From the IMG/VR virus record IMGVR_UViG_3300035689_000001: 64,000 nucleotides of DNA; one strand, 5' to 3'. The notes under the pieces were generated by a model, which was not told the origin of the DNA, did not search any database, and saw only the letters and a program-made list of their open reading frames with translations. The position numbers were made by a program, and so were the translations under genes. This DNA comes from an uncultured virus (IMG/VR IMGVR_UViG_3300035689_000001). Taxonomy: Duplodnaviria; Heunggongvirae; Uroviricota; Caudoviricetes. This document shows positions 6,670 to 64,000 of the stretch, one piece after another (position 1 is the first letter of the stretch; the number at the start of each line of letters is the position of its first letter).

Positions 6670-7900
6670 AATCCGAAACTGCTCCCATATCTGATTGCTG
6701 CTGTGATAGCTGTGCGGCTATCCTGCGATTTGGCTCCGGGACAATCCCGTAATCTACCCTGTCAATTGTACGGGTTCCAACCGGCTGGGTTGAGTGACCC
6801 CCTAAAGTGTATCCTCCATAGTGATCGCCTGTCCCAACAGCGCAGGTACGAGATTCTGTCAACTTTGCCGCCAGTATTGCAGGTGTCTCGGTTGCGAATG
6901 AAAACTTTGTGATCAGATCGCTATGGTAAACCCCGTTGATGTGGCCAGTATTGTGGCCACCCGTCAAAAATGCTTTTGTTTTATTGCCGAACGCAGCATG
7001 GACAAGGTGAAAATTGCTTTGAGTGATGGTTGTGCCGAGCATTGCTATCAGCTCAGGGATTGTTGGAAAGTAAATCCTCTCAATAGTATTGAGAGGAACA
7101 TCATTTACGCTATTAGCGCCACCACTATATATGTATCCATAGGATGCACTACAAAGACCATTGTGCGGAGAGATCCGTCTGGCCGACAGAAAGTCAGCCA
7201 CGTATGCTACCACTATCGGGGGACCAAACGAAACACGTTGCAGATGACGTGTCGCAACTCGCCAGTTGCCACCACCACCTACAACTAGCCCCTTGCTTCG
7301 ATCCTGTATCCCACCGGTCGCACCGATCCTTGGTTGCACCATGCTGGTGCCAGAACGCGCTGCTGTTTTGGATGCATATCGATACACATCAATGATGACA
7401 CTCCCGTTTACCCCGCTGCAGAACAAGCCTTGCTCCTGGTTCCCAACAGTTGCGGTATACACTTTGTTCTCAGATAATCGCGTCGTTAATGCCTCAATCG
7501 CCTGATTGCTATAGGTCAATTGATCCAGGCGGTCAAAGCCAGACGTTAAATTGTAACCACCTCCAAAAACCCCCACTGTCCCGGTTGTGCTGGGCTGCAC
7601 CATCGGGGCGGTCGGTTGCACCACATTTGTAGGCGGTGTCAGTGGCGGCGGATCAACTGGCGCGGGCGGCGCGGGCGGCGGCACAAATCTACCTACTGAA
7701 AGAATTGGCATCAACCCAGGGACTGCCCACAACCTCAAATTCTGCACCCCAACTGTCTGCTGTCCATTAATCCGCCGCGTATTCGCCTGCTGCCTAGCGG
7801 TGGCGATCGCCTCAGCATTTAGCCGCCTCACCGCATCTGCCAGGTCATCGCGCACCTGCACATCAAAATCATTTGGAAATAGCAGTGGATTAACCATCAC
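6650..7900 (-). CDS. Putative tail fibre / receptor-binding protein with beta-propeller-like repeats
   Basis: Pro-rich linker followed by repeated units (GVFGGG..DQLTY, GLVVGGG, GYIYSGG..IERIYF, AFLTGG..ITKFSF, GYTLGG..IDRVDY). Confidence 0.55.
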   Translation of the reverse strand: MMVNPLLFPNDFDVQVRDDLADAVRRLNAEAIATARQQANTRRINGQQTVGVQNLRLWAVPGLMPILSVGRFVPPPAPPAPVDPPPLTPPTNVVQPTAPMVQPSTTGTVGVFGGGYNLTSGFDRLDQLTYSNQAIEALTTRLSENKVYTATVGNQEQGLFCSGVNGSVIIDVYRYASKTAARSGTSMVQPRIGATGGIQDRSKGLVVGGGGNWRVATRHLQRVSFGPPIVVAYVADFLSARRISPHNGLCSASYGYIYSGGANSVNDVPLNTIERIYFPTIPELIAMLGTTITQSNFHLVHAAFGNKTKAFLTGGHNTGHINGVYHSDLITKFSFATETPAILAAKLTESRTCAVGTGDHYGGYTLGGHSTQPVGTRTIDRVDYGIVPEPNRRIAAQLSQQQSDMGAVSDYGAGFS

Positions 7901-10180: not shown

Positions 10181-10239
10181 ATCTAAACCTCCGAGATACC
10201 CCGCCGTGTGGACGGACGGGGTATCTCGGAGGTTTAGAT
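10181..10239. repeat. Perfect 23-bp-arm palindrome made of two copies of an IS200/IS605-type end
   Basis: ATCTAAACCTCCGAGATACCCCG-13 nt-CGGGGTATCTCGGAGGTTTAGAT; arm matches the sequence at 62225..62246. Confidence 0.8.
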
Positions 10240-10295
10240 GAATCTGCCCCTCTGTCACTTTGGTTTTATATCCTGATATAAAATTGTCACAAGTG

Positions 10296-22437: not shown

Positions 22438-22472
22438 TTGACACTCCCCACCGCATAGGCGGATGGGGATTC
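22438..22472 (-). mobile_element. Isolated IS200/IS605-type right end
   Basis: Minus strand GAATCCCCATCCGCCTATGCGGTGGGGAGTGTCAA; hairpin nearly identical to that near 62243. Confidence 0.65.
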
Positions 22473-24216: not shown

Positions 24217-24257
24217 CTCTGCTCAGCCGTGTAGTGAGCGTGCCGAGCTGTTCGGGC

Positions 24258-24408
24258 GACTCACCCCTATGTGCGTGGGGAAGGCTGATGTAGCGCACTA
24301 CTTCGATGGTGGAAGCGTAGACTCACCCCTATGTGCGTGGGGAAGGCTAGTGAGATCATCTCACTTACCTCAGTCAAAGCGACTCACCCCTATGTGCGTG
24401 GGGAAGGC
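24258..24408 (-). CRISPR. Orphan CRISPR mini-array: 3 repeats, 2 spacers
   Basis: Identical 28-nt repeats at 24258, 24320 and 24381 (minus strand GCCTTCCCCACGCACATAGGGGTGAGTC, CCCC/GGGG stem); unique 34- and 33-nt spacers; period 62/61; orientation inferred from likeness to I-E repeats. Confidence 0.9.
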
Positions 24409-28316: not shown

Positions 28317-29153
28317 TTACGGTCGCGAAGGGATGCGATCGCTATGTGATTTCGAGAGAAGTGGTGATTGACCAAGGCATCGATATGCCTCCACCTCTTG
28401 CTCGGCTTCATTCATCGCCCGATCCCGGATCTCCTCTGGTGAAACCACCAGAACTTTCCCTCGGTATCTTCCGAGATCCTGGAGCAGCCAGAAAACGCTC
28501 CAACACTTTCGGATGACGATGGTCTTGCCGTCCACCTGTTCCAGCTCGTCGCCCTCATGGGGTGTGTAGCGGAATCCAGGCTGGATCTGAAGCTGAACTG
28601 GGATTGAGTCCAGTCCATGAACCCGCCATTCCCCAGTAGAGCGGGAAACTGCCGTGATGTGATCGAGCCGGATGGTTCGGTTGTGCCGCAGAGCCTCTGG
28701 CTCACCTGAGTCGATCTCCCCTTCTATCCATACCCGAAGCTGCGGACGGCCACCCGAAGGCGTCCAGAAATCTCCGTAGTGGCAGTTGTAAACATTGCCG
28801 CTGGCGCTGGTGACGGCAAACGACGATCGCTCCTGAATGAGCTTGTAGAGATCGCTCACTACGTCCCTGGCTACCACTTTCGACCAGAAAGTGGAATCTA
28901 CCCCGGTTGAGAGGCGAATCCACTCAGATAGCTGACTTGCCGCCTGAAGGTTGTTCAGGCTCAACAAGCACGTCACCCCCTCCAATAAGGCACTTGTCTG
29001 CTCTGCGGTTGGGGCAAACGTATTGATTTCGCCATTAGCGATCATCTGGCAGAACTTACTTGGATCCAGTCCGTATGACTGGGCGATCGCAGCAAATCGC
29101 TGAAACTGATCCTCCCCGTCGGCAAAGCTGATTTGTTTTCCAATCCGCGCCAT
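28317..29153 (-). CDS. WYL-domain transcriptional regulator (cyanobacterial Sll7009-like)
   Basis: N-terminal RHH-like segment; LRVW...EALRHNRTIRLDHI WYL core; FWLLQDLGRY..KVLVVSPEEIRDR WCX tail. Confidence 0.8.
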   Translation of the reverse strand: MARIGKQISFADGEDQFQRFAAIAQSYGLDPSKFCQMIANGEINTFAPTAEQTSALLEGVTCLLSLNNLQAASQLSEWIRLSTGVDSTFWSKVVARDVVSDLYKLIQERSSFAVTSASGNVYNCHYGDFWTPSGGRPQLRVWIEGEIDSGEPEALRHNRTIRLDHITAVSRSTGEWRVHGLDSIPVQLQIQPGFRYTPHEGDELEQVDGKTIVIRKCWSVFWLLQDLGRYRGKVLVVSPEEIRDRAMNEAEQEVEAYRCLGQSPLLSKSHSDRIPSRP

Positions 29154-38406: not shown

Positions 38407-38856
38407 ATGATCCAGTTCAATGTATTGGAAGGGCAGGAGTTTACCTGGCTCTTTGTTGAAGCTCGCAGAGGAAAGCCTGATCGGGCTGATCTGCTACGGC
38501 TAGACTTGCCTCAGGTAACGGGCAGCAAGGGGTTAGTGATTTCCTCTGGCAAGCTCCCAGCCTGGGCAGGAGTGGGAACCGCCATAAGCCATTATCGAAA
38601 TCGAACACCATGGCAGGCGATTTACGATCCCGTTGAGAAAGGGGCGATTGTCATTTTTTCGATCTCGGATAATCCATTGATTGGCGACATTCTGTCACTG
38701 AAGTTGCCATGTCTGGCTTGTGCTGAAAAAGGTATAGAAACTCTTTTGAAGGCGGGTGCAATGTACCCTTACTGCCAAAAGAACGGCCACCAGAATCATG
38801 CTCCAGAGAGGCAGAGTTACACCCCGAAAAACTCTCCGTTGAGTAAAGATGGATGA
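38407..38856 (+). CDS. csx3: Second, divergent Csx3-like protein with C-terminal Cys/His extension
   Basis: LDLPQV...KGLVISSGKLPAWA....SHY...PWQAIYDP...GAIVIFS....LIGDIL parallels the Csx3 GVVISGRGPIW/YDPR pattern; tail CLAC..YPYC...GH. Confidence 0.7.
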   Translation: MIQFNVLEGQEFTWLFVEARRGKPDRADLLRLDLPQVTGSKGLVISSGKLPAWAGVGTAISHYRNRTPWQAIYDPVEKGAIVIFSISDNPLIGDILSLKLPCLACAEKGIETLLKAGAMYPYCQKNGHQNHAPERQSYTPKNSPLSKDG

Positions 38857-49421: not shown

Positions 49422-49455
49422 TGAACTACCCCACCCTGTAGAGGGATGGGGGAAT
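49421..49455 (-). mobile_element. Isolated IS200/IS605-type end
   Basis: Minus strand AATTCCCCCATCCCTCTACAGGGTGGGGTAGTTCAT; same hairpin as 128..166. Confidence 0.6.
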
Positions 49456-49895
49456 TCCGCTATTCCGTTAAGCCTTGGTGTAGGCTGACGGGACAGAAGC
49501 GCTTAGCCATTCTGCCGCCTTGAGGCTGCTGATATGCCCGTAGCGCATACCATTACCCCTGTTACTCCCAACATGGGCAAAGCGCGACTGTTGTAAATAG
49601 CGATCGGCCACAGCAGAAAGTGGATTGTCCATCCAAATGACAAAACAATAAGGTTTAGTTGTTGCACCCCGGTGGCGGTGGGGGTGGTGGGGTAGTTACA
49701 CTTCGCCATGAATGTAATTCTTTCCAATGGGGAAATCAAATAGGGATGCCGCAACCGGATGACGGAGGTTGTCCTTTATCGTTTTTACTACCTCTGCCAA
49801 AACTTCAGACTGTTTGAGGCGATCGCCCGATATCCTAATCATATCCCACTCAAATCGCCAGGGCACAACGTGCTATTGAGATTCGTATTCTTTGG

Positions 49896-51617: not shown

Positions 51618-52772
51618 ATGCGAATTCCGGTCGTAGACCAAAACCATCAACCGTTAATGCCAACTACTCCCGCCAGGGCGAGGAAATGGCTTGCGTCTGG
51701 CAAGGCAGTAAAACGCTGGTCGGATTGCGGCCAATTTTATGTCCAGCTCACCGTCGAGCCATCAGGTCGCGCAGTACAGCCTGTCGTGGTCGGCATCGAC
51801 CCCGGCAAGAAGTATTCCGGCATCGGAGTACAGTCTGCCAAGTTCACGCTTTACACCGCCCATCTAATACTGCCATTCCAGACTGTCAAAGACAGGATGG
51901 AGCAGCGTCGAATGATGCGCCGAGGCCGCAGGGGAAGACGGATTAACCGCAAGGTGCCGTATTCTCTTCGTGCCCATCGGCAAAAGCGATTTGATAATCG
52001 CAGGGGTAGTAAGCTGCCACCCAGTATTCGAGCCAATCGCCAGCTTGAACTACGAATCGTCGCGGAACTCTGCAAGATTTATCCAGTTACAGAAATTCGC
52101 TACGAATACGTTCGAGCTGACGTGGATCTGACCTCTGGGCGCAGCAAAGCGCGTTCCGGTAAAGGCTTTAGCCCCGTGATGGTGGGACAGATCTGGATGC
52201 TGTCTCAGCTTGAGCGGCTTGCCCCAACAGCCAAAGTGGAGGGCTATACCACTGCCGCAATCCGCAATCACCTGGGCTTAGTGAAGAACAGGGCTGACAA
52301 GTCAAAAGTTGAGTTCAATACTCATGCGGTTGATGGCGTTGCCCTGGCTTGCTCGTATTTTGTGGAATATCGACAATTTCACAAAATAGGGTGCGACGGG
52401 GCGGACTGGGCGGGAAGTGTTGTTATCACTTCTTCCCCGTTTTTTGTGGTGCGTCGTCCTCCCGTCTCTCGTAGACAGCTACACCTGATGGTTCCGGCAA
52501 AGGGGGGAGTGCGTCGCAAATATGGCGGCACTACGACCCGACACGGATTCCGCAAGGGCGATCTGGTTAAAGCAGAGATGGGCAGCAGATCTCATGTTGG
52601 CTGGGTGAGTGGTGACACACAGAGGCAGGTAAGTGTTTCGGATTACAACTGGAAACGATTAGGGCAGTTTGCGGCATCCAAAGTGTCGCTGATTGCTCGT
52701 TCGACTGGGCTGGTGGTTTCGGGGGTGTCGAACCCCGCTCAACCGCCACTCCTATCCCTCCCCGGCCTGTAG
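51618..52772 (+). CDS. isrB: IsrB (PLMP/RRXRR RuvC nickase without HNH)
   Basis: PLMPTTPARARK, GIDPG (RuvC I), RRMMRRGRR bridge helix, YEYV (RuvC II), THAVDG (RuvC III); no HNH insertion; 384 aa. Confidence 0.85.
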   Translation: MRIPVVDQNHQPLMPTTPARARKWLASGKAVKRWSDCGQFYVQLTVEPSGRAVQPVVVGIDPGKKYSGIGVQSAKFTLYTAHLILPFQTVKDRMEQRRMMRRGRRGRRINRKVPYSLRAHRQKRFDNRRGSKLPPSIRANRQLELRIVAELCKIYPVTEIRYEYVRADVDLTSGRSKARSGKGFSPVMVGQIWMLSQLERLAPTAKVEGYTTAAIRNHLGLVKNRADKSKVEFNTHAVDGVALACSYFVEYRQFHKIGCDGADWAGSVVITSSPFFVVRRPPVSRRQLHLMVPAKGGVRRKYGGTTTRHGFRKGDLVKAEMGSRSHVGWVSGDTQRQVSVSDYNWKRLGQFAASKVSLIARSTGLVVSGVSNPAQPPLLSLPGL

Positions 52773-52801
52773 AGGCGCGGGGTTTCTCGGAGGATTTTTC
52801 G

Positions 52802-53854
52802 ATGATTGATCCAAAATCCCTTGATATTGCGTCACTTCCGGTTTTGCCAATGGACGCGAAAACCAACCTCCCAAAGGAGTCCGGCATTTACTTTGCACTG
52901 AACAGTGAAGGTAGAGTTCTGTATGTTGGACAAACCGTAAACTTGAAAAAGCGATGGGTGAATCACCATAGGTACGTTGCGTTAAACAAGATTGGTGGGG
53001 TCAGCATCGCTTACTTATTTGCGGCTCCTGAGTTACTTTCTTCACTTGAAGAGGCGTTGATTGAATTCTTCAAACCTCCTTTTAATGGGAATTCAAACAA
53101 AGGGCAGCAAGGCTCTCTTGGAGGATCTAAGGCATATTTTGGAAAATCAGTCACTCCGATCGAGATCGACCGGGAGATAAAAGTAATGGCCGAACTGGTG
53201 GCCTATCTGCATGGTCATCGGCATGGCGATCGCGGCAGTTTGCCAAAGTTTGTTCGGCCAGTCCTGACTGGTGAGTATCTTGTGGTGCCGAACCGGGTAA
53301 TCGGTTGGGCGGAACTTGTGCCCCAGATCCAGGAGATACTACTGTCGTACCGTGACAGGGAGAAGAGCCGTCAACCCTTCAGCCTGCGGTATCGCCACTC
53401 GCATGGCAGCATGGAAGACTTCTCGGTCCTGTATGGAGAAGTCACGGTTCACGAAGCGCGATTCTATCTGGATGCGTGGGTGGCGGAACCAGGTGGCCCT
53501 GATGTTCCGGCGCTGCAACACAACCGTTGTTTTCGGCTGGATCGCATCCAGCAGGTTAACGGCCCAGTCTCAGGTGAATGGCGCGATCGCCTCGACAGCA
53601 TTCAGGTTGTGTTTGAGCTGTCGGGTGGGTTGGCGCGAGGGGGCTACGAAAAGCGCCCTGAGGATTTGTCGATTGAACACCTGGGGACGCCGCAGGATCC
53701 ATGCTTGCGGGTAACCAGGGAGGTCTCCAATACGTTCTGGTTTATCCGGGAGATGCTCTCGTATGGTCAAAATTACCAGGTGATCGCGCCTGTAGAGGTA
53801 CTGGAACGGGTACGGAATGAAGTGACTGTGATGTTCAAGAAACATTCAGGTTAG
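52802..53854 (+). CDS. GIY-YIG nuclease-like domain fused to a WYL regulator
   Basis: SGIYF...VLYVGQTVNLKKRW..HH...E..LI..FKPPFN; then YLDAW...LQHNRCFRLDRI and FWFIREMLSYG...VIAP. Confidence 0.85.
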   Translation: MIDPKSLDIASLPVLPMDAKTNLPKESGIYFALNSEGRVLYVGQTVNLKKRWVNHHRYVALNKIGGVSIAYLFAAPELLSSLEEALIEFFKPPFNGNSNKGQQGSLGGSKAYFGKSVTPIEIDREIKVMAELVAYLHGHRHGDRGSLPKFVRPVLTGEYLVVPNRVIGWAELVPQIQEILLSYRDREKSRQPFSLRYRHSHGSMEDFSVLYGEVTVHEARFYLDAWVAEPGGPDVPALQHNRCFRLDRIQQVNGPVSGEWRDRLDSIQVVFELSGGLARGGYEKRPEDLSIEHLGTPQDPCLRVTREVSNTFWFIREMLSYGQNYQVIAPVEVLERVRNEVTVMFKKHSG

Positions 53855-53859
53855 CGGTT

Positions 53860-55152
53860 ATGGAGATCTGGAGTCTAGAAAATATGAAATATGTGATCGC
53901 CCACGCCAATTGCTTCGACGGTTCCGCCGCTGCTTATGCGGCGTGGCGGAAGTTTGAGGATAACGCTACATATTTGTACTGCCAGTACGGCGACGATATG
54001 CCGGAACTGCCGGACGGGGCCGAGGTGTGGTTCCTGGACTTTTTCCAGATCCGCTGGATCGACGCCCTGTTGGCGCAAGGTTGCGATATCCATGTGTTGG
54101 ATCATCACGAATCAGCGGTGGTCGATACATTGCACTGGATAGGTAACCGCATCCTCAGGGGTGGCTCAATGGAATACGGGTGGGCAAACCTGCGGGATGA
54201 CAAAGTATTTGACCTGCGGGGATCAGGTGCGCTGTTTGGCAATATGGAATCTGATCAAATTGAGGATTGGATCGACTTGACAGCATTCACCGCATTGTTC
54301 TTCAAAGCAGAGCGGCTCGATATCAAATTCAGCCTCTCGCACTCTGGTGCCGAGATGGCCTGGATGAATTTCTTTGGAGCGAGCCGCCAGCCTGATTTAA
54401 TCAGCTACGTGGGCGATCGCGATCGCTGGGTCTGGCAGCTCCCCAATAGCGAGGCCGTTAGTGAGGGGCTGTGGGATAGCCTTAAGCGATTCCGAACCGA
54501 CCGACAAGCGATACAGGGCAGCATCTCGCGATTTACCGAGGTAGCGCTGGATGATGTGCTGGATCCTCAGGCAGACGCGATCGCCGAATTCCAGTTTCTG
54601 AACCATCTGGCACACAACCCTGACTACTGCAAAAACATGGTGGCGATCGGCCTACCACTCGTAACGGCTCGGCAGGCAGTAGTGCAACAACTTTGTCAGG
54701 ACGTTCGATTCTGCACCATCCTGGGGTACAAAGTCCCGACTGTCCGGGCAAACTGCTACCACTCCTGGGTAGGTCACTACCTGTTGGATCGGTACCCCGC
54801 TGCACCGTTCGCTGCGGTGGTGCGGGATCAAGGTGCTGGGGTGATGGGGATTGAGTTGCGGAGCCGTCCAGGATTCCGGGTGAACCGCATCGCGCGGCAG
54901 CTCGGTGGTGGTGGCCACCCAACGGCAGCAGGTTTTCGACTGCAACAGGTCAGGAAGCTAAAGATTGGCGATCGCTTCTGCGCGGCGGTCGAGATGAATC
55001 TGGGGGACGGGATTCCCATCCAGATCAACATCGATCCAGACTTCGGATACCGTTGGCAGATCCAGCCAGATGCGTCGGTTCAACGGATTGATCGGCCCGC
55101 AGACGTTATACATAGTTGCGGCAGAGCCTGGGTCATTAAGGAGGAGTCATGA
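53860..55152 (+). CDS. DHH/DHHA1 phosphoesterase (phage-type)
   Basis: IAHANCFDG, FLDF, VLDHHES, SGA, VGDRD.W.W, ELRS, GGGGHPTAAGF. Confidence 0.88.
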   Translation: MEIWSLENMKYVIAHANCFDGSAAAYAAWRKFEDNATYLYCQYGDDMPELPDGAEVWFLDFFQIRWIDALLAQGCDIHVLDHHESAVVDTLHWIGNRILRGGSMEYGWANLRDDKVFDLRGSGALFGNMESDQIEDWIDLTAFTALFFKAERLDIKFSLSHSGAEMAWMNFFGASRQPDLISYVGDRDRWVWQLPNSEAVSEGLWDSLKRFRTDRQAIQGSISRFTEVALDDVLDPQADAIAEFQFLNHLAHNPDYCKNMVAIGLPLVTARQAVVQQLCQDVRFCTILGYKVPTVRANCYHSWVGHYLLDRYPAAPFAAVVRDQGAGVMGIELRSRPGFRVNRIARQLGGGGHPTAAGFRLQQVRKLKIGDRFCAAVEMNLGDGIPIQINIDPDFGYRWQIQPDASVQRIDRPADVIHSCGRAWVIKEES

Positions 55153-55502
55153 CCATCAATTACCCTCCTGCACTTTTCCTGCAACTGGGAACGTGGCACC
55201 CCTCGGTGCGATTCCAGTTGGAAGGTTGGCAACGTGGGATCATCACATGGGATGAAGCTCTGGAGAATTGCGTCAGAACACTCTCGATCGAGTGTAAGGC
55301 CCATATCCTTGCACTCGAATTAGATTTAGATCCTCTCCCTCGCATTCAAGAGGTTCCCGCTGAAGAGCGGTTTGATGAGCGGAGACGGCTGGAACGCCAG
55401 TCTGAACTCATTAGAGCTGTCGTCCAGTTGATTATTATCCACCAGGATTTAGTTGGTCTGCGATCGCCCGTAATCAAAACCACCCCTCTGGAGTCATCAT
55501 GA
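55149..55502 (+). CDS. Hypothetical protein
   Basis: 117 aa, ATGA coupling. Confidence 0.6.
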   Translation: MTINYPPALFLQLGTWHPSVRFQLEGWQRGIITWDEALENCVRTLSIECKAHILALELDLDPLPRIQEVPAEERFDERRRLERQSELIRAVVQLIIIHQDLVGLRSPVIKTTPLESS

Positions 55503-56395
55503 CTGAAGCTGTAATTGCATCTAAATTCAAGGTCAACTTTATCGACCTGATTCGCCCGCGAGCCCCCTACGGATACGATCTGGAGAAGGCGATCGCTGTT
55601 TACCAGTGGATGGTCAAGACGGCTCAGAACCCAAAGTATGGTCCAGATGATGGATGGAGGGGAAGCTATGCGGTCGCGCTACTCAATCGAAATGTAGGGG
55701 CGCGTCGAGTGTGCGAAGTTGATCCTTTCAGTCGCAATTGGGAGGAAGAGCTGTGGGGAGCCTTCCGTTATGCACTTCTGGATGACTGCACTTCTGGCCA
55801 GGTGGAGCAGTGGCGGGTAGATCATGGAATTTCGATTAACCAGAGTCGTGTCATTTCAGCGCCCTATTACGCAGGGAAGTTGCCGATGATTGATTGGGGA
55901 AGCCCCGGTCGGTACAGCGGCCTGAAAGGGATGATCAATCGTCTTTTTACGCTGGAGGGGCGGCGACTCAAAGACTCCCATAACAGCAGTCACCTGCAAG
56001 CCAGAACCATTGTTCGGGTGCTGTGGCAAACCATGCCACAGCATTCCTTGATACTGAAGTATGGTTACGGGGATGAGTGGTCGTCCTCCTGGGAGATCTC
56101 GATTCGATCTCAAGAGGGTGAGCTGCTTCCTGATTGGCTGTACCGGGCGTGGCATGAGGCGAACGCCCTGGTGACTGAAGAGGATCGGGAGCCAGCGCCA
56201 CCGAAACGCTACGCATGGAAACGGTTGAGCGACGGGTATATCGCACGCGAGTTGGTTTCGGCGTCCAAAGAAGCGCTTTTCGAGCGCTCAGGATTTGATG
56301 CCTTGGAGGTCGATAAACCCATCAAAGGGTTCATTGCGGTCGAGATCGATGATCGCTTTCAAGAAATTCCAGCCCCCACAGGACAACCATCATGA
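55499..56395 (+). CDS. Hypothetical protein
   Basis: 298 aa, ATGA coupling. Confidence 0.65.
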   Translation: MTEAVIASKFKVNFIDLIRPRAPYGYDLEKAIAVYQWMVKTAQNPKYGPDDGWRGSYAVALLNRNVGARRVCEVDPFSRNWEEELWGAFRYALLDDCTSGQVEQWRVDHGISINQSRVISAPYYAGKLPMIDWGSPGRYSGLKGMINRLFTLEGRRLKDSHNSSHLQARTIVRVLWQTMPQHSLILKYGYGDEWSSSWEISIRSQEGELLPDWLYRAWHEANALVTEEDREPAPPKRYAWKRLSDGYIARELVSASKEALFERSGFDALEVDKPIKGFIAVEIDDRFQEIPAPTGQPS

Positions 56396-57126
56396 TCACG
56401 ACGGAGCTGACGACCGAGCAATCAGCGATCCAGACCGCGATCGCCACTGTGTACCCAGACGTAGAAATCCGATGGGATCCCCTGGAGTGGGATACAGAAT
56501 GGTTGATCAATCTCAGCGGCTATGCTGATTTGAAGAAGGGGACGGAGCACCCCAGCCTAATCCTGCCGTTCACGTACCTCGTGGACCATGTTGGCCGCAG
56601 ACATTCCATACAGGTCAACTGCTCGCTGGTCACGGTGGAAGCTGGGGGCTTGGGAGCCGTACAGGATTGCTTCCTGCTGGAATCCTTCCGGCTGACCAGC
56701 ACTGGTCGCAAATACAAACGGCAGTCCGATGTGTTCGGCAAGATTAAGGGGCGATCGCGGTTTCCTCTCGACAGCTATTTCATCTATACTCTGCCGGGTG
56801 GTTCCGACAAATTCCCCAATTTCGATGCGGTGAGGCGTTGGCGTTGGCGACTCCGCCAGGGAGAAACAATTGCCCTCATTCACGGGGACTGGGCATTCAT
56901 CCCGAAGGAGAACCCGAAGGGCACTTCAGTCGGCACATCCATCGACCTCGGAGGAGCCGATATCACCAGTGACAAGATCCTACGGAAGGGCGATCGCCTG
57001 TTTGTCCTGAATCCCGTTTCATATAACGACGACTTGGATATGGCAGAACTGACGGGCTGGTACGAAGTTCGGCTCGGTCGTCGATGGGCAAATGATTGGG
57101 AATCCGAAGAAAAAATATCGGTCTAA
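56392..57126 (+). CDS. Hypothetical protein
   Basis: 244 aa, ATGA coupling; RQGE...HGDWAFIP and GWYEVRLGRRW motifs. Confidence 0.65.
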   Translation: MITTELTTEQSAIQTAIATVYPDVEIRWDPLEWDTEWLINLSGYADLKKGTEHPSLILPFTYLVDHVGRRHSIQVNCSLVTVEAGGLGAVQDCFLLESFRLTSTGRKYKRQSDVFGKIKGRSRFPLDSYFIYTLPGGSDKFPNFDAVRRWRWRLRQGETIALIHGDWAFIPKENPKGTSVGTSIDLGGADITSDKILRKGDRLFVLNPVSYNDDLDMAELTGWYEVRLGRRWANDWESEEKISV

Positions 57127-57132
57127 ACACAC

Positions 57133-57756
57133 ATGACTAAACTAAATCGCTACTACGGCATCAATGGTGCCGATAACCCAGCCGTCGGGGTAATGGCGGC
57201 AATCACCTGGGCGATCGCCTGTGCGCGTGATAAGGGGCGATCGCAACTCCAAGGGATGAACAAATGGGATCGCCTCACGAGCTGCATCATCAACGCAGCA
57301 TCTGCGGCTATGACGGTAGATGACTATGTTGGGAAATTCTGCCAGTTGGTTGCAGCAGCATCACTGCCGCCCCGGATGCTGAGCCGAATTGTCGCGGGCG
57401 ATGGCACCAAACCAATCATTCTGTACTGGGTGCCGCTCGACGGGGAAGACCCTAACGCTATTGCGAACCAGGCCGTGGAACCGCTGGATCTGCCCCAAAC
57501 GCTCCAGCGGTTCCACGGTGGCGATGTTGGCGTGATGCAGGACCAACACTATGCCCGACTGGCATACGGAAACTATCGCCTGTTAGTGCATGATGCCTGC
57601 TGCCGAATGCCCTGTGATGAATACCGCCTGCTGGACTACTGCCGAGATGACAGCGCTTACATCATCACGACGCTGTGCCAACTCAAAGATGAGGAGTTCC
57701 GGGCACAGGGCGTCAAGTTGGAGGATGAAGCGATCGACGTGGAGGTGACAACTTGA
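57133..57756 (+). CDS. Putative Cas11-like small subunit of the type IV module
   Basis: Helical 207-aa protein upstream of csf2; KWDRLTSCIINAASAAMTVDDYVGKFCQL loosely resembles type IV small subunits; mainly positional. Confidence 0.45.
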   Translation: MTKLNRYYGINGADNPAVGVMAAITWAIACARDKGRSQLQGMNKWDRLTSCIINAASAAMTVDDYVGKFCQLVAAASLPPRMLSRIVAGDGTKPIILYWVPLDGEDPNAIANQAVEPLDLPQTLQRFHGGDVGVMQDQHYARLAYGNYRLLVHDACCRMPCDEYRLLDYCRDDSAYIITTLCQLKDEEFRAQGVKLEDEAIDVEVTT

Positions 57757-57932
57757 TAACGGTCAAAATTATCAACGCGATCGCAGATAAACATTCTGCT
57801 GCTGTGTTCCAAGAATTAGTTCAACAGGGATGTTCCGTTGATGATGCCCTGACTGACCTGGCGGATGAAATAAAGGAAGCGATCGCCACAGTTTTGGAAG
57901 AATATTTCCTGGAGGAATTTGATGAAGATTGA
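57753..57932 (+). CDS. Very acidic 59-aa protein (not in ORF track)
   Basis: TTG start overlapping the previous stop, GGAGGT RBS; 15 D/E versus 3 K. Confidence 0.6.
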   Translation: MITVKIINAIADKHSAAVFQELVQQGCSVDDALTDLADEIKEAIATVLEEYFLEEFDED

Positions 57933-59148
57933 AGAATACAACATTTACGATCGCCAAAACCTGACGTTTTGGGTGCGCCTCACCCTGAATGCTCCCCTGA
58001 GCCACATCAAGAATGTGGTGGGGAACACGTCACTGTTCAATACCCAGCATGTTTTGGATCTGGAGGGCCGTCGCGTACCCTGTCCGTTTTTCAGCGCCAA
58101 TGCGTTTCGCGGTTGGGTACTGCGCCGTATCGGCAATATGGCGACCCTGGACGCGATCGCATCCGGAGACTGGGCAGGTGAGTTGCCGCCCGATGCTCAC
58201 CACGCTGTGTTCTCTGGTGGTTCCCTGGGGAAGGGGGCCAGCATGGTGAATGCAATGGGGATGTATGACTACGTGGCACGGCTCTACCCGCCGTTGCGGT
58301 TGCTCGGCACCGCGAAACCAGGGGGACTCTTTGGCGAGAAGGGTTCCATGATGATGGAAGGGCTGCTCAACATCGGGAACTTCTGGTTAGTTTGCTATGA
58401 ATCAGCGCTGTACTGCCCACCCGCATTTCTGCCTGGTGAAGTGGTGGAGGCGATCGCCAACCTCAAAGAATCAGAGCAGCATTTACAGGAGTTACGCTGC
58501 CTGAACGGCTCCCCCATGCAGGATGTTTTAGCGTGTGGGACAGCGGAGCAGAAACAGCAGTATCGAGAGGCAGCAGAAGCCCATCAGCGACTACTGCGGC
58601 AGTACTGTCCGCTGATCCGTGAGGCACTGAAACCTTACGGACAATACTTGACGGATCATCAAACTACCCGGCGCGATTCCCACCATGATGCGACCCTGCG
58701 GCCCTACCTGCGGGAAGGATCCACTGGCCTACTGGAGGGCGATACGAAACGGAAGGTTGCTAAAGCTGAGCCAGAAAGCAACCAGATGATCGTGACGGAT
58801 CAGCTAATCGCTACCGGCTCGCAATTCTGCTCCAGATGGGATACCCGCACCCCAGGGATTACCGATGTTGAGGAAGGCTTCCTGGTGTTTGCCCTGGAGG
58901 AATGGGCAAAGAACCCGATGCTGGGGGGCAAAGCGTCTCGCGGGAATGGTGGCTATCCAGACATTGAAATCTGGTACGCCGTCAATGGTGAACCGCAGGG
59001 GCGGTACCTGGAACTGGTGAGCGGCACCCAGCGGTTTAGCGATCGGGCACAAAAGGCTCGCGATCGCTGGGCAGAATACTGCACTGCCTACAGATCATAT
59101 CTTTCGGAAAATCGTGATGCGATCGCAGGGTTTATCGGGGGTTCATAA
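57922..59148 (+). CDS. csf2: Type IV CRISPR backbone subunit Csf2 (Cas7 family)
   Basis: LTLNAPLSH, PFFSANAFRG.VLRR, VFSGGSL, YPPLRLLG, TRRD, NQMI...LIATG, LGGKASRGNG RAMP motifs; GGAGG RBS before ATG 57922. Confidence 0.85.
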   Translation: MKIEEYNIYDRQNLTFWVRLTLNAPLSHIKNVVGNTSLFNTQHVLDLEGRRVPCPFFSANAFRGWVLRRIGNMATLDAIASGDWAGELPPDAHHAVFSGGSLGKGASMVNAMGMYDYVARLYPPLRLLGTAKPGGLFGEKGSMMMEGLLNIGNFWLVCYESALYCPPAFLPGEVVEAIANLKESEQHLQELRCLNGSPMQDVLACGTAEQKQQYREAAEAHQRLLRQYCPLIREALKPYGQYLTDHQTTRRDSHHDATLRPYLREGSTGLLEGDTKRKVAKAEPESNQMIVTDQLIATGSQFCSRWDTRTPGITDVEEGFLVFALEEWAKNPMLGGKASRGNGGYPDIEIWYAVNGEPQGRYLELVSGTQRFSDRAQKARDRWAEYCTAYRSYLSENRDAIAGFIGGS

Positions 59149-60050
59149 TGCTGTTGCGCGAGATTCAACGGTTTGTCGAGAATGAACATGAGTATGCAAA
59201 GCTGTTGGCTCACATCCGCCAGGAGTTTCCCTACAAGATGCCGAAAACTCATGTCCGGTGGGAACTGCTGAGCGCGATCGCCACTATGATGACGGGGGTA
59301 GATGCGCAGGCAGCCCCCGATGCCGGAACCTATCTGCATTGCCGCCTTTGGCAACAGTGGGTACGGCAAAGATCGCCGCTCTACTGCATCAGCACGGATC
59401 TGCTGCGGCAGTTCGAGCTGACCGATACAGACAACCTGCCGGGGTTGGTGCCGAGCGATTGGGTACCGCCCCTGAATCTGTTTCTGCTGTGCTTCCCCAA
59501 TAACGCGGTTGTATCGCCCATTGGGCAGCCCATTCACTACATGCTGGTGGCTTTGATGCACCCCGAAATTCCAGGCGTAATCGGGAGTGAGCATCCGCGC
59601 CAGATATCGATCGCTCTGACGGATTACGGGGAATGCGTCTGGGTGTCTGGATCAGGGTTGGGGGAAGGGAAACTGTTGCATGAACGCAATAAACTTGGTT
59701 CCCACCCGACTGACAAACGAGAAGAGGCTTGGCTGGAGCAGATGATATCGATCGGGCTTCAGTGCAGCATGGCGATTTCATACCTGCCGGAACTAATCGA
59801 TTCCTCTGAATCCTCTAGTGAATCACCTCAGCGCCCAGGCGGGCGGCAACCATCCAATCGACCCAGGATTCTCACCCCCCGCTGGATTGGGCGCGACTTC
59901 CGGCGATCGCCTTCCACTAATTTGACCGGAACCCATGCCAGCCCCACGACTCATTGGCGTCGTGGCCACTGGCGGCAACAGCCATACGGGGAGGGCCGCA
60001 GTGAACGCCGCCTCGCATGGATAAAACCTACTTTGGTTGGATCGTCATGA
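59148..60050 (+). CDS. Unknown protein inserted between csf2 and csf3
   Basis: 300 aa, coupled on both sides; C-terminal HASPTTHWRRGHWRQQPYG...WIKPTLVG motif of a type seen in phage proteins. Confidence 0.7.
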   Translation: MLLREIQRFVENEHEYAKLLAHIRQEFPYKMPKTHVRWELLSAIATMMTGVDAQAAPDAGTYLHCRLWQQWVRQRSPLYCISTDLLRQFELTDTDNLPGLVPSDWVPPLNLFLLCFPNNAVVSPIGQPIHYMLVALMHPEIPGVIGSEHPRQISIALTDYGECVWVSGSGLGEGKLLHERNKLGSHPTDKREEAWLEQMISIGLQCSMAISYLPELIDSSESSSESPQRPGGRQPSNRPRILTPRWIGRDFRRSPSTNLTGTHASPTTHWRRGHWRQQPYGEGRSERRLAWIKPTLVGSS

Positions 60051-60799
60051 CTTATGTCCCACTCCGAATAACAGCCCAGATGGGCCAGCAACTCAGTGCC
60101 TACGATGACTGGTCACCCGCGATGGATTCCTTGCTGGAACGTCTCTGGTTTGTCCAGCAAGGCTACGCAGAACCCGACCCGCATCCTGATGAACTGCTCC
60201 ACGCCCCCATTCCACTCCAGATGGCGATCGCCCACCCAGGCGGCATCGTCACACCGATCACTACGCCCTCCAGTGAGCCAATGTTGCACCGTGAATTGCC
60301 AGCAGACTGGCTATGGTGCAGTTCCTCCCCCTGCTATTTCGTTAACTTCGAGGGACTCTACAGCGTGCGGAAGCGCCACGACCCGCATGTCACCAACCAC
60401 ATTGCGGATCGATCCTTTCGGTGGAGCAGCAGTGAAGGTCAACTGAAAGACTATGATCTACAGCTGCCGTTCCGCGACATCCGAAACTGCATCGTGTGGT
60501 TCGCTGTGGGGGATCGCACCGCCGTGGAGGCACTGCTCAAAACCTGCACCCATATCGGCAAAAAGTCCAGCATTGGGTACGGCCTCGTGACGAATTGGGC
60601 TGTTGAAGAAGTAACGTTTGACTACTCCACCTGGGGGCCGGATGGTGAGCTAATGCGACCACTCCCGACTCGACTGATGCCACAACGCCCGATTAACTTT
60701 GCGATCCGGCGATGGGGTTGGCGACCCTGCGGCAGGATCGCCCAGTACCAGGAAGTGTGCGCGATGCCTGCCCTGAATGTGCGGCGGTGGGAGGCATAA
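60047..60799 (+). CDS. csf3: Type IV CRISPR subunit Csf3 (Cas5 family)
   Basis: PLRITAQM...DSLL, WCSSS, WFAVGD...V..LL...HIGKKSSIGYGLVTNWAVEE, LMRPLP. Confidence 0.82.
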   Translation: MTYVPLRITAQMGQQLSAYDDWSPAMDSLLERLWFVQQGYAEPDPHPDELLHAPIPLQMAIAHPGGIVTPITTPSSEPMLHRELPADWLWCSSSPCYFVNFEGLYSVRKRHDPHVTNHIADRSFRWSSSEGQLKDYDLQLPFRDIRNCIVWFAVGDRTAVEALLKTCTHIGKKSSIGYGLVTNWAVEEVTFDYSTWGPDGELMRPLPTRLMPQRPINFAIRRWGWRPCGRIAQYQEVCAMPALNVRRWEA

Positions 60800-61569
60800 T
60801 GCTTTGCTACCTGTGCGGGCGTGAATCCGCTACCCACCTGGCACCCCTGAAAGATTCGTTTACGGCTCATTCGGCAGCGCGATCGCCCCGCAGCCAGGAA
60901 GGAGTGGCGGTTAAAAGCAAAACCGAAACCCATTACCACCTGTGCGATCGCTGCCATAGCCTGATCCTGGGGGATATGGCCCGCTGCTGGTACTGGAACC
61001 CCAATGCCGATAGCAAGCGGCAGCAGGGACAAAAGGGGGAATGGAGTCTGTTCTGGACGCGGGGAACAAGCTGGCTCATCAGCGAAACAGAACAGTTCCC
61101 CCGGATTGGCAACCCAATCGAGGTGACCCCAATCGACAGCAAAACTGGGAAACCCAAAACCCCCATGACGCTGCGGCAGATCTTCGACCTTCCGACCTAC
61201 CAGCAGGTTCGTGAGTGGCTCCTGAATCCACCGAGGCCACCGTTCAGGATCGTGATCGCTGAGTCTGGTAAAAAGCACATCGACTTCCTGTCGCAGGTGG
61301 CATACTGCCGCGATCGCTTCCCGGTCCAGTTTGAACTCGACACCCTCCAGGTAGATCGCGACGAGTTCACCTGGCTCCTCAATGCTTTTGAATCCCTGAT
61401 GGTTGCCGGGTTTAGCAAAACCGAAATCTTCACCGGGCAATATCGGAGCGATCGCCTCGCCAAGTCACTTCAGCAATATCACCAGAGCGACCCCGTGGTA
61501 AGTCCCTACCGGGGAACACGACTGCTGGGGCTTGTTCGATATGTTGCGCAAACAAAGGATTCAGTATGA
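60799..61569 (+). CDS. csf1: Type IV CRISPR large-subunit-like Csf1 (Cas8-like)
   Basis: CYLCG and LCDRC zinc finger, SFT, WLLNPPRPPF.IVIAESGKKH; TAATG coupling. Confidence 0.8.
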   Translation: MLCYLCGRESATHLAPLKDSFTAHSAARSPRSQEGVAVKSKTETHYHLCDRCHSLILGDMARCWYWNPNADSKRQQGQKGEWSLFWTRGTSWLISETEQFPRIGNPIEVTPIDSKTGKPKTPMTLRQIFDLPTYQQVREWLLNPPRPPFRIVIAESGKKHIDFLSQVAYCRDRFPVQFELDTLQVDRDEFTWLLNAFESLMVAGFSKTEIFTGQYRSDRLAKSLQQYHQSDPVVSPYRGTRLLGLVRYVAQTKDSV

Positions 61570-61733
61570 CCAAGACCCAACCTACTCCAAAACGCCCGTG
61601 CGATCGCCCCGACTGCCAGCAAGCCAACCACTGTCTTGCACCTGCACCGGAACAATGCCCTGCTCACCCCGGTGCCCCAACCTACCCGACCGCTACCCCA
61701 AAACACCTGAGAACCCCAACCATCCCCCTATGA
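61566..61733 (+). CDS. Small Pro/Cys-rich protein (55 aa, not in ORF track)
   Basis: ATGA overlaps at both ends; CDRPDC...HC...C..H. Confidence 0.45.
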   Translation: MTKTQPTPKRPCDRPDCQQANHCLAPAPEQCPAHPGAPTYPTATPKHLRTPTIPL

Positions 61734-62230
61734 GTAATCTCACTCCCTATGAGGGCGATCGCCCTCTTGTCCCGATCTCACTCCCCAACCACCCCTTATC
61801 TCTACCGCAGATTTCACTTTTTCCAAATCCCCAGAACTATCCCCCGATCCTCCTGCCCACAGTCACGCCTCCTCCTCTACCGCTGCCCCCGGAACCCCAG
61901 TGGGCTGAACTGACCTGGACCGTAATGGGTGATCGCATCCCTGCTGACCACTGCTACCGTCTCTACAGTGCCTTGGTGGAACGCATCCCAGCCCTCAAGG
62001 AAATGAACTGGCAACTCAGCACCATCACGGGGATACCGGATCGCCAGGGCTGGGTAAAGCTGGGGCGGCGATCGCGCCTGATGATCCGGTGTTCGCTCGA
62101 CCAGGTGCCAGCGTTCAGCACTCTGGACGGCACTATCCTGCGGGTTGGTCAAACCCTATTGCAGCTCGGCACCCTGGAGGGCAACAACCTGACCGCGTGC
62201 GAGACCCTGGAGAGCCGACTCGTCATCTAA
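61730..62230 (+). pseudogene. cas6: Cas6 (Cmx6/MYXAN-like) N-terminal half, truncated by an IS-derived element
   Basis: ELTWTVMGDRIPADHCYRLYSAL...ITGIP...RSRLMIR...LDG..LRVG...LESRLVI then a stop supplied by the element; Gly-rich C-terminal loop absent. Confidence 0.8.
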
Positions 62231-62631
62231 ACCTCCGAGATACCCCATCCGCCTACGCGGTGGGGAGGGATAGGAGCGGCAATTGAGGGGTTCGATACCC
62301 CGATATTGCCAAGTACAGGCGTACCAAAGTAAAATGAGAAACATGAGATGCCCAAAACCAAAGCGTCTCGAAGCACCTTGACAACCAGGGTTAGGGGGTT
62401 CTTGCCAGGAATGCTTGGCAAGGTAAAAACTCTGAGCACCAAGTAACTGAGATTCTTCTCTCCGTACCGTGGGACACACGGGATCGGGACTCTGAAATGG
62501 GTCAAAAAGTCTGTGGACATGATGTAAGACGGGAACATGGCTTGTCTGTGTACGCAAACGTGGATGAAGCAGAAACCTAAATCGTGAGGTTTGGGAATCC
62601 CCATCCCTCTATAGGGTGGGGAGGATGTCAA
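62227..62631 (+). mobile_element. Non-autonomous IS200/IS605-derived element (405 bp)
   Basis: Preceded by TCAT; 5' hairpin CCCCATCCGCCTACGCGGTGGGG; ACCGTGGGACACACGGGA tnpB-3'-like remnant; TCAA end; 3' part repeated at 1..127. Confidence 0.85.
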
Positions 62632-62827
62632 TCTGGGTCTATGACCCTACCCAGCTTTCGATAACCCCCGGCCTGACGATCGCCGAATTGGTACATCTGA
62701 TTCGCAACACCAACAACAACATTACATCGTTGCGGTTGAGCGGCAAGAAGGAGCAAACGATGGTGCTGGCGATCGTGCGGGGTGATGAGGCCCAGAAGCT
62801 GGAACAGTTCATGCAGGAGTTGGAGGG

Positions 62828-63304
62828 GTGAGTACCCTGCTACTGGCCTTTAGGTTTGCCCCGCTGGTGATGGCGATCGTAGCGATCGTCTGGCTTGAGT
62901 TTATGTACCGTCGGTTCAAGATAAAGCTTTGGTACAGGCTCACGGGGCGGTTGAATTATCCAGTCTGGAGCACGATGGTGCTCCAACAGATCGATGGCCT
63001 CGGCTGGTTGATGTGGGTGCGGTTAGGGTACTGCTGCATCCTGGGGTTTGTCGCGATCAAGCTGTGCAACGACATCTTGTTTGTCGAAACAGTGAGACAG
63101 GACTTCCTGGAACTGCGGCGAGAAATGGTTTTGATGCAGGATCAGGCAAGGGAGATTCAGGAGCGTCGTAATGCCCTGGCAGAAAGCGGCTGTCTATTGG
63201 GACTACACTGCATCGCAATGGGCGGTGACGGCAGAGATTGCGACAACTTTGATCACTGCAACGGGATGCAATCCCTTACGGATAATTTCGAACAACAAAC
63301 CTAA
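62828..63304 (+). CDS. Hypothetical membrane protein with Cys-rich C-terminus
   Basis: 158 aa, two TM segments, GGAGG RBS. Confidence 0.55.
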   Translation: MSTLLLAFRFAPLVMAIVAIVWLEFMYRRFKIKLWYRLTGRLNYPVWSTMVLQQIDGLGWLMWVRLGYCCILGFVAIKLCNDILFVETVRQDFLELRREMVLMQDQAREIQERRNALAESGCLLGLHCIAMGGDGRDCDNFDHCNGMQSLTDNFEQQT

Positions 63305-63581
63305 CAAAATAGTCCATGTTTAATAACAGAAAATGTCTATTAAATGTCTATTATTTGTTGACATTTAATATTAGGAATTGTTAAAATATATATATAGAAA
63401 AACATTTTATAAGTCATGTTTACTTTCCTCGCTTTCATCGCTCTTCTCCTGATTTTCTCTGACAGCAATCGGATCGACCTCATCAATATCTTCAACGCGG
63501 CTGCACTTGCCTTTGCCCTTACCTACATTGCTCAGGCTGCGTTTTAGTCCAGCGATTATTAACTGGACTTTTGACTAAATC

Positions 63582-63686
63582 GCGCCGATTTTTTCTGAAA
63601 CACTGGCGCTGCCAGTGTTTCAGAAAAAATCGGCGCTAAAATTAGATATGCCGCGAAACGCTCTTGCAGAGAGCGTTTCGCGGCAT
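63582..63686. repeat. Two adjacent perfect hairpins (26-bp and 17-bp stems)
   Basis: GCGCCGATTTTTTCTGAAACACTGGC-GCT-reverse complement (63582..63636); ATGCCGCGAAACGCTCT-TGCAG-reverse complement (63648..63686). Confidence 0.85.
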
Positions 63687-64000
63687 TGCAGAAAAGATAG
63701 TCAAAACTCCAGTTATTAATCAACTTATTTTAGCTTCTATTAAAATGACTCTTCTGCAACTGGCTCTATTTATCCTGATTCAATCGGCGATCGCTACATT
63801 CCTGATGATCATTTTTGGTTATCTACAGCCTGAAGAAATTAACCCATTCATTATTCTCGGAATCTTCCTCGCTGCCTTTAGTCTTGCTCATTAACGAGGC
63901 CCCGGATGTTCAGCACAATCATTATCTACCCCTATTCCTGGACCTGGGCTTTTGACGCCGCCGCCTACGCCATTCTGGCCGCAACTGCCCTGAAGCTCGC

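Follow-up and report, generated by a model that had tools for sequence, protein, structure and literature searches.

Which type IV system does a phage carry when its effector genes match none of the textbook forms? This question is raised by an operon at positions 57133 to 62230 of a 64,000-nucleotide stretch of DNA, the window of this analysis, from an uncultured virus of the Caudoviricetes (IMG/VR record IMGVR_UViG_3300035689_000001). The operon encodes a type IV effector of the CRISPR-Cas kind. A sequence-only reading had taken its combination of a Cas11-like protein, a Cmx6-type Cas6 and a distant mini-array for an undescribed variant that fits neither subtype IV-A nor IV-B. The operon does depart from the textbook forms of both subtypes. 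However, its Csf2 belongs to a lineage in which all five members with sufficient gene context combine Cas11 with a full Cas6 and a CysH-like gene. Sequence profiles and gene content both indicate the rare, Cas6-bearing kind of IV-B in a remodelled state, and thus a modified known system rather than a new subtype. We consider it reasonably probable that the operon is a remodelled member of a small, mostly phage-borne IV-B lineage, and that its core still builds an RNA-bound Csf complex which is used in phage conflict.

The homologies of all five cas genes (cas11, csf2, csf3, csf1 and cas6) can be considered real, each gene being matched by PADLOC models (Table 1). The NCBIfam type IV models matched as well, all below their curated cut-offs. 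In 11 related loci, tblastn with Cas11 matched the gene for this protein, which lies upstream of csf2; the Cas11 sequence profile had no match among solved structures. The csf3 gene was 27–32% identical to csf3 of the relatives. The genes are coupled as described before, with stops and starts overlapping along the chain (TTGA, TAATG, ATGA and TAATG). The likelier starts of csf2 (57922), csf3 and csf1 were read from these junctions: the ATG at 60047 (csf3) overlaps the upstream stop and the ATG at 60799 (csf1) overlaps the csf3 stop. The four core open reading frames (ORFs), cas11, csf2, csf3 and csf1, are open and of full length. Three extra genes had been reported as interleaved; two were found, encoding 59 and 300 amino acids, together with a C-rich spacer of 330 nt in the cas6 frame. 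The shorter one begins with TTG behind a GGAGG site, found no family match in profile scans and is unlike the small ORFs in the same slot of the relatives.

Csf2, which forms the Cas7 backbone, retained 14 of the 14 invariant columns of its alignment. Failure of the RAMP fold prediction had been named as a result that would speak against the sequence-only reading. The predicted Csf2 model (predicted local distance difference test, pLDDT, 80.4) adopted the Cas7 (RAMP) fold, and its best fold matches were type IV Csf2 chains (E 1.4e-12). Csf1 kept 47 of 58 columns that are invariant among five relatives, including CYLC and CDRC. A helical insertion in Csf2 (approx. residues 173–243) was modelled as long helices, and no Cas11 model matched it. 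The Csf2 proteins of this clade are approx. 125 aa longer than Csf2 of the canonical IV-B locus of Rhodococcus (281 aa) because of this insertion.

The subtype was judged from gene content and from sequence profiles. Among the IV-B traits, cas11 is present, neither a DinG or RecD helicase nor adaptation genes were found in the 64-kb window, and no array adjoins the operon. The reported absence of dinG, cysH, recD and cas1/2 was confirmed, as Cas1, Cas2, DinG, RecD and CysH had no match in 66 further window ORFs of at least 60 aa or in Pfam scans of 59 ORFs. A processing enzyme, nuclease or helicase for the effector was likewise not detected in the window. Cas6 is typically missing from IV-B, as is an adjacent array; here no CRISPR array lies within 33 kb of the operon, and a truncated Cas6 is present. 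IV-A is characterised by DinG, Csf5/Cas6 and an adjacent array and has no cas11; DinG and an adjacent array were missing here, and cas11 was present. The large subunit is not the Cas10-like protein with an HD domain that is expected for IV-C, but a Csf1 of approx. 256 aa with zinc-finger cysteines. Against solved structures, the Csf2 profile had its best match in the IV-B chain 7jhy (6.9e-19), followed by a chain named Cas7c (1.9e-18) and, for IV-A, by a best value of 3.8e-12. The same four PADLOC Csf2 models matched the window, all 46 sampled relatives and the canonical Rhodococcus opacus IV-B locus, and no IV-A-specific model reached 1e-25. The label 'CAS-IV-A' in the PADLOC model descriptions was considered as a sign of the subtype and rejected, since the canonical IV-B locus matches those models at 1e-99.

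Csf2 is a rare protein. When 1.84 billion cluster representatives were searched exhaustively, 237 matches reached E<=0.001 and 17 reached E<=1e-30. Scanning viral and genome contigs with the single protein, or searching with a second alignment, yielded no close Csf2 relatives, and neither Csf2 nor the operon DNA had a match in the phage collection. Thirteen related loci were obtained, 12 from a scan of metagenome contigs and one, the Gloeobacter morelensis plasmid pGMOR1 (NZ_CP063846), from a plasmid collection. Five of them (L001, L002, L004, L005 and L006) had enough flanking sequence to be judged, the other eight being too short. All five carry Cas11, Csf2, Csf3 and Csf1 together with a gene of the PAPS-reductase family (CysH-like) and a Cmx6-type Cas6 of full length; a gene for a cupin or a Coq4-like protein is located nearby. 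Phage hallmark genes were found near four of the five metagenomic loci tested.

A quick Csf2 tree was built from 53 rows, namely the window, seven locus proteins and 45 chosen out of 150 listed representatives; one canonical IV-B protein was the only subtype reference, with none for IV-A, IV-C, IV-D or IV-E. The window Csf2 fell into a 17-row clade (Shimodaira–Hasegawa-like approximate likelihood ratio test, SH-aLRT, 100) with all five CysH- and Cas6-bearing loci, and within it into a 4-row subclade (support 99) whose other members have an unseen gene context. The proposed typing by Csf2 phylogeny and profiles gave a clade shared with loci of IV-B gene content and a profile ranking in favour of IV-B, whereas the fold ranking favoured IV-A; the tree was a quick one with a single IV-B reference. 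As evidence against an undescribed variant, the sequence-only reading had named a Csf2 that nests in a described subtype with the usual ancillary gene elsewhere on the element; the nesting with IV-B loci was found, but cysH was not found in the 64-kb window.

The cas6 gene is truncated where a multi-copy repeat element begins. The assignment to Cmx6-type Cas6 was right as to the family, but it applies to the N-terminal half only. Residues 124–232 of the ORF cover positions 3–111 of the 197 in the PADLOC profile; the homology takes in positions 2–109 of 191 in PF09559 and positions 5–113 of 194 in a model made from five relatives. The remnant keeps the ADH motif and lacks the second RRM-like domain and the C-terminal glycine-rich loop present in the five relatives; its alignment stops at 'SRLVI', where they run on into the second domain. 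No canonical start codon adjoins the homology; upstream of it, the ORF extends for 366 nt across C-rich DNA that reads as a proline-rich stretch. The C-terminal half of Cas6 was not found by model search in any frame of the window. A weak tblastn match of this half beside the mini-array (E 0.051) was rejected, as the model search did not uphold it.

The cas6 stop codon (62228–62230) lies inside the repeat element. Summed contig depth per bin rose to 74–176 within the element in the sequencing runs X1 and X3, compared to approx. 20 in the flanks, and contigs of other contexts end at both of its edges. Copies of its hairpin motif are located at 62243–62268 and 62599–62624, and positions 1–127 of the window are 100% identical to 62505–62631, the final 127 nt of the element. 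The truncation might in part be an assembly effect, with the contig misjoined through the element and the true phage having the rest of cas6, and perhaps cysH, behind it. The element is found in many contexts and has loose ends on either side, which would fit this explanation, as would the contig piece covering the operon, which ends at 62252, and the separate 57-kb contig that begins at 62603 and extends beyond the window end. In both full-coverage runs compared, however, the cas6 frame meets the element and the stop inside the unique contig piece, so that the gene is interrupted either way. Moreover, the flank depths agree (20.1 and 18.1 in X1) and the window holds no C-terminal half of Cas6. 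Such an assembly effect is given very little credence here. Hairpin repeats of the kind CCCCATCC...GGTGGGG also occur in intergenic gaps at 95–231, 10181–10241, 22438–22472, 49429–49458 and 52722–52805; the contigs assembled from the sequencing runs are broken at these repeats, some of which bound the element that truncates cas6.

A cysH-like gene, present in five of the five context-rich relatives, was not detected in the 64-kb window by tblastn with the CysH-like proteins of the five relatives, by a six-frame search with a model made from them, or by Pfam and PADLOC. The C-rich spacer between csf1 and the cas6 homology showed no signal of CysH, cupin or Coq4-like proteins in any frame. One of the relatives, L002, has two genes of the PAPS-reductase family: a phage-type gene of 395 aa (6125–7312; phrog_12882, 6e-150) and a CysH-like gene of 239 aa (12087–12806), which belongs to the type IV locus and is followed by a Coq4-like gene.

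The larger interleaved gene belongs, as judged from profiles and a predicted model, to the AcrVA2/FinQ family. It overlaps csf2 by TAATG and csf3 by ATGA. While a direct Pfam scan of the protein assigned no family, 32 of 32 homologues had a precomputed match to PF26125, and the protein atlas placed it with AcrVA2-like clusters (score 0.98). One AcrVA2-like protein is 79% identical to it. A profile of 19 sequences reached AcrVA2 at E 0.76; with 61 sequences, AcrVA2 (7ci1) was the only match, at E 1.6e-6 and across the C-terminal motif. At E<=0.001, the predicted model (pLDDT 83.7) matched nothing in the PDB but two AcrVA2 chains (prob 0.97). H269, R271 and H274 are invariant in the 61 sequences and align with H286, R288 and H291 of AcrVA2, which, according to the available text of Marino et al. 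(bioRxiv 10.1101/2022.11.29.518452), are needed to trigger the loss of Cas12a mRNA. In the same text, family members are described as widespread among mobile elements, mostly in the absence of Cas12a. AcrVA2 from Moraxella bovoculi prophages (PDB 7CI1) and FinQ from Escherichia coli plasmids share the C-terminal HxRxxH motif and carriage on mobile elements with the present protein. Compared to AcrVA2, it is only 11–13% identical over the fold alignment and has a divergent N-terminal part.

An AcrVA2-family gene inside a cas operon is a single case so far, and no earlier one was found in the papers searched. The cas11-csf2 and csf2-csf3 junctions of the relatives hold varying genes, namely Cas6, a 187-aa orphan and assorted small ORFs, and the 300-aa protein resembles nothing in the same slot of the relatives. 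Slots around csf2 in phage IV-B operons may collect conflict genes; the AcrVA2-family gene adds one case to these signs. By analogy with AcrVA2, the protein most likely acts independently and would silence a chosen gene post-transcriptionally. Alternatively, it could be a working partner of the Csf complex that lacks CysH: the filament would pick a transcript, possibly via I-E-type guides from the mini-array, and the AcrVA2-like protein would destroy it. This would be a new IV-B accessory and the first link between a cas effector and AcrVA2 silencing, but the chance that it is true appears slim.

The distant mini-array itself is real. Three identical 28-nt repeats start at 24258, 24320 and 24381, where none is expected by chance, and their spacers measure 32–33 nt. 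Support for its proposed role as a part of the system was not obtained, however: the repeat is I-E-like, the array lies 33 kb from the operon, just upstream of the small terminase gene, and none of the related loci examined has an array, so that a tie to the operon is unproven. Type I-E arrays carried by plasmids of Klebsiella and Enterobacter align with this region. By manual comparison, the repeat shares 23 of 28 bases with a Klebsiella I-E repeat whose array adjoins cas2e and cas1e. Type I-E arrays, such as that of Klebsiella pneumoniae (L014), likewise have 28–29-nt repeats and 32–33-nt spacers, but the array of the window has three repeats only, and cas1, cas2 and cas6e were not found in the window. 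By analogy with the Klebsiella array, it would be read on the minus strand. Folding z-scores of the repeat were near 0 for both strands. A promoter scan beside the array found none, and one terminator-like hairpin (minus strand, 24018–23992) was no more than expected by chance. The repeat was not present in IMG/VR (exact match) or in the Gloeobacter plasmid, and an Rfam scan of the array gave no match.

The mini-array could serve a type I-E system of the host or feed the Csf complex. Viral mini-arrays usually serve host systems, according to the available part of PMC11656645. Type I-E appears rare in freshwater unicellular cyanobacteria, with a single I-E Cas1 in a 28-strain tree in the accessible part of PMC4428289, and therefore a host I-E partner is not a given. 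This rarity would also suit the explanation of the sequence-only reading, in which an undescribed variant of type IV would be self-sufficient, draw guides from the mini-array and silence competitors. IV-A3 systems are described to use the type I-E adaptation machinery (PMC11656645, available part), and for an archaeal virus, IV-B together with a mini-array has been published (PMC10848311). In these 'Fuxiviridae' viruses of Bathyarchaeia, IV-B is likewise virus-borne and accompanied by a viral mini-array with no identified target, but their mini-array lies within the locus and CysH is present, while the array of the window is 33 kb off and no CysH was detected. The sole Cas6 of the window is truncated, and of Cmx6 type rather than Cas6e; the array sits beside a terminase gene; arrays within approx. 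10 kb were found in none of seven related loci examined; and the gene content of the lineage is that of IV-B. Targets of the spacers were not found in the window, in the phage and plasmid collections or in IMG/VR (the latter by exact match only). A self-sufficient variant is thus regarded as improbable.

The phage setting described earlier was confirmed by the hallmarks in the window, namely a tape measure protein, a small and a large terminase and an endolysin. The carrier can be considered as phage-like, cyanobacterium-adapted DNA of a lake cyanophage. The octamer GCGATCGC, the cyanobacterial HIP1 motif, occurs 115 times in the window compared to 1.6 expected. Its sites are distributed across the operon as across the rest of the window, and none is found from 62076 to 63786. 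The operon is complete in four lake-water metagenome runs of 2020 and 2024, all of which may be sources of the present DNA. An identical 300-aa AcrVA2-like protein is encoded on five contigs, the longest of 145,483 bp. Given this contig and the 57-kb contig that runs past the window end, the window would cover less than half of the element.

The operon is part of a long co-directional gene chain that also contains nucleases and the DHH phosphoesterase. From cas11 back to the phosphoesterase gene, the upstream ORFs are joined by four-base overlaps each. The three orphans among them had protein-atlas scores <0.85, a single relative was found and no family could be assigned; the upstream genes had no match in any related Csf2 locus. 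Further upstream (52802–53854, plus strand), behind an RRXRR/HNH gene, lies an unusual fusion in which the N-terminus of a GIY-YIG nuclease is joined to domains of the WYL and WCX kinds (Pfam 1.3e-5 and 2.8e-6; PADLOC WYL 3.8e-11). A second, weaker WYL match was obtained at 28317–29153 on the minus strand. An IS605-type TnpB gene (OrfB_IS605 with a Cas12f-like TNB domain) is located inside the phage at 34085–35374 on the minus strand, and another TnpB gene splits the type IV locus of the relative L002 (16782–18008). A protein of the Csx3 family is encoded at 38407–38856 on the plus strand (Pfam PF09620 1.7e-10; PADLOC Csx3). Csx3 proteins are known ring nucleases, and thus the phage Csx3 may counter type III CRISPR signalling. 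The tape measure gene lies directly upstream of the terminase region, with small ORFs over 2.4 kb and the mini-array in between, and its length implies a very long tail. Behind the operon, the miniature inverted-repeat transposable element (MITE)-like sequence reached a summed contig depth of up to 517 in one run, compared to approx. 15–20 in its flanks, and is thus very abundant in the lake community. An Rfam scan of the window gave no match.

Table 1. Features of the 64-kb window (positions are counted from its first nucleotide).
Feature	Position	Strand	Size	Remarks
Endolysin	513-1973	minus
Tape measure gene	10457-21832	+	3791 aa
Mini-array	24256..24408	.		three repeats, two spacers; repeat spacing of 62 and 61 nt
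Small terminase	24568
Large terminase	25419
Upstream genes coupled to cas11	53860..57126	+	430, 117, 298, 244 aa	DHH/DHHA1 phosphoesterase (430 aa) and three orphans; Pfam, PHROGs
cas11 (type IV small subunit)	57133..57756	+	207 aa	PADLOC typeIV_Cas11 E 2.9e-6 and 3.5e-6
Acidic ORF	57753..57932	+	59 aa	overlaps cas11 (TTGA) and csf2; 15 D+E, 3 K+R, pI 4.05
csf2 (Cas7 backbone)	57922..59148 (ORF opens 57919)	+	~408 aa	PADLOC Csf2/Cas7 1.2e-34
AcrVA2/FinQ-family gene (assigned from sequence and model)	59148..60050	+	300 aa	motif H269-x-R271-x-x-H274
csf3 (Cas5)	60047..60799 (ORF opens 60017)	+	~250 aa	PADLOC Csf3_0_IV 1.7e-30
csf1 (small zinc-finger large subunit)	60799..61569 (ORF opens 60712)	+	~256 aa	PADLOC Csf1_0_IV 5e-20
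C-rich spacer	61570..61897	+	~330 nt	in frame with cas6, reads proline-rich
cas6 remnant (Cmx6-type, N-terminal half)	61898..62230 (ORF 61532-62230)	+		PADLOC 1.5e-24; Pfam PF09559 1.3e-22
Multi-copy repeat element	62223..62632	.		bounded by CCCCATCC...GGTGGGGAGG hairpin motif; carries the cas6 stop
MITE-like element	63554-63721		168 bp	24-nt inverted ends, inner palindromes

Canonical IV-B, as in the complex of Mycobacterium sp. JS623 (PDB 7JHY) and on Rhodococcus opacus pLP414 (L095, with the gene order cysH, csf1, cas11, csf2, csf3), shares Cas11, Csf2, Csf3 and a small zinc-finger Csf1 with the window and is equally devoid of helicase, nuclease, adaptation genes and adjacent array. In contrast to it, the window has no cysH-like gene, a Cas6 remnant and an AcrVA2-family gene in the operon, and a cyanophage as carrier. 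The Cas6-bearing IV-B loci on lake phage contigs and pGMOR1 are in the same Csf2 clade, with Csf2 being 32–36% identical, and share recognisable Cas11, Csf3, Csf1 and Cmx6-type Cas6 and the lack of an adjacent array. They keep a full Cas6 (191–263 aa) and, frequently next to a gene for a cupin or Coq4-like partner, a cysH-like gene, whereas the window does not. Cas6-bearing IV-B was described as a rare exception with 'only 12 instances', and IV-B on prophages was already noted, in the available text of PMC7038947; no cyanobacteria are named in its supplement as far as this was accessible.

Several results weigh against the assignment to a remodelled IV-B lineage with a working core. The fold search with Csf2 ranked IV-A chains (1.4e-12) above the IV-B chain 7jhy (1e-5), and the subtype assignment is based on gene content and the sequence profiles, the tree having no references of the other subtypes. 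Csf2's three closest relatives (39–51% identity) lie in the subclade with unseen context, so that the loss of cysH is inferred from the sister subclade. The analysis covers 64 kb, and beyond it the element could have an array, another cas6 or a gene like cysH. The assembly crosses the repeat at 62223–62632, and the sequence after cas6 is less certain than the truncation itself. The fold similarity of the 300-aa protein to AcrVA2 is significant yet loose (template modelling, TM, score 0.26–0.31). Csf genes were found within 8 kb of AcrVA2-like genes in none of the 80 viral loci examined (out of 268 found), and an AcrVA2-like gene in none of the 13 related Csf2 loci. Finally, Cas11 retained 16 of 31 and Csf3 31 of 50 columns that are invariant among the relatives.

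This last result, with approx. half to three fifths of the columns retained, would also fit a decaying relic, which is the main rival: a module from a CysH- and Cas6-bearing ancestor would be in the course of being lost, and its remaining genes would have no role. The undetected cysH, the halved cas6, the repeat elements and MITE that border the operon and the unrelated gene within it agree with such a decay. On the other hand, the four core ORFs are of full length and open, their starts and stops overlap, the conserved residues and zinc-finger cysteines are retained in Csf2 and Csf1, and zero differing letters were listed for positions 55000–62252 in two lake runs from 2020 and 2024, both of which are possible sources of the present DNA. 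A working RNA-binding complex appears likelier than a relic because the frames are intact, residues are conserved and no differences were listed between runs four years apart. A relic is therefore considered rather unlikely.

Under the preferred reading of a remodelled IV-B operon with a working core, the plan of the lineage comprises cas11, csf2, csf3 and csf1 with a cysH-like gene and a full Cmx6-type cas6. The four core genes would form a Csf2-Cas11 filament capped by Csf3 and Csf1, which would bind RNA without a nuclease, helicase or CRISPR RNA (crRNA)-processing enzyme of its own. According to the available parts of the IV-B structure and reviews, the Csf2-Cas11 filament forms on RNA, while the source of the guides and the output are open (PMC7937560, PMC8175902). 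Host RNAs or crRNAs are conceivable as the bound RNA, as are mini-array transcripts of the I-E-like type that an enzyme of the host has cut. The phage may use this complex in conflict with its host or with rival mobile elements. The silencing of competitors and the sponging of host crRNAs, the functions considered by the sequence-only reading, are already published as hypotheses for IV-B (PMC8175902, as far as accessible).

The function of IV-B is unsettled, and reviews treat the near-constant CysH-like partner as key. This phage provides a natural copy of IV-B with an intact core, no detectable CysH and no working Cas6, and would thus allow a direct test of the core alone.

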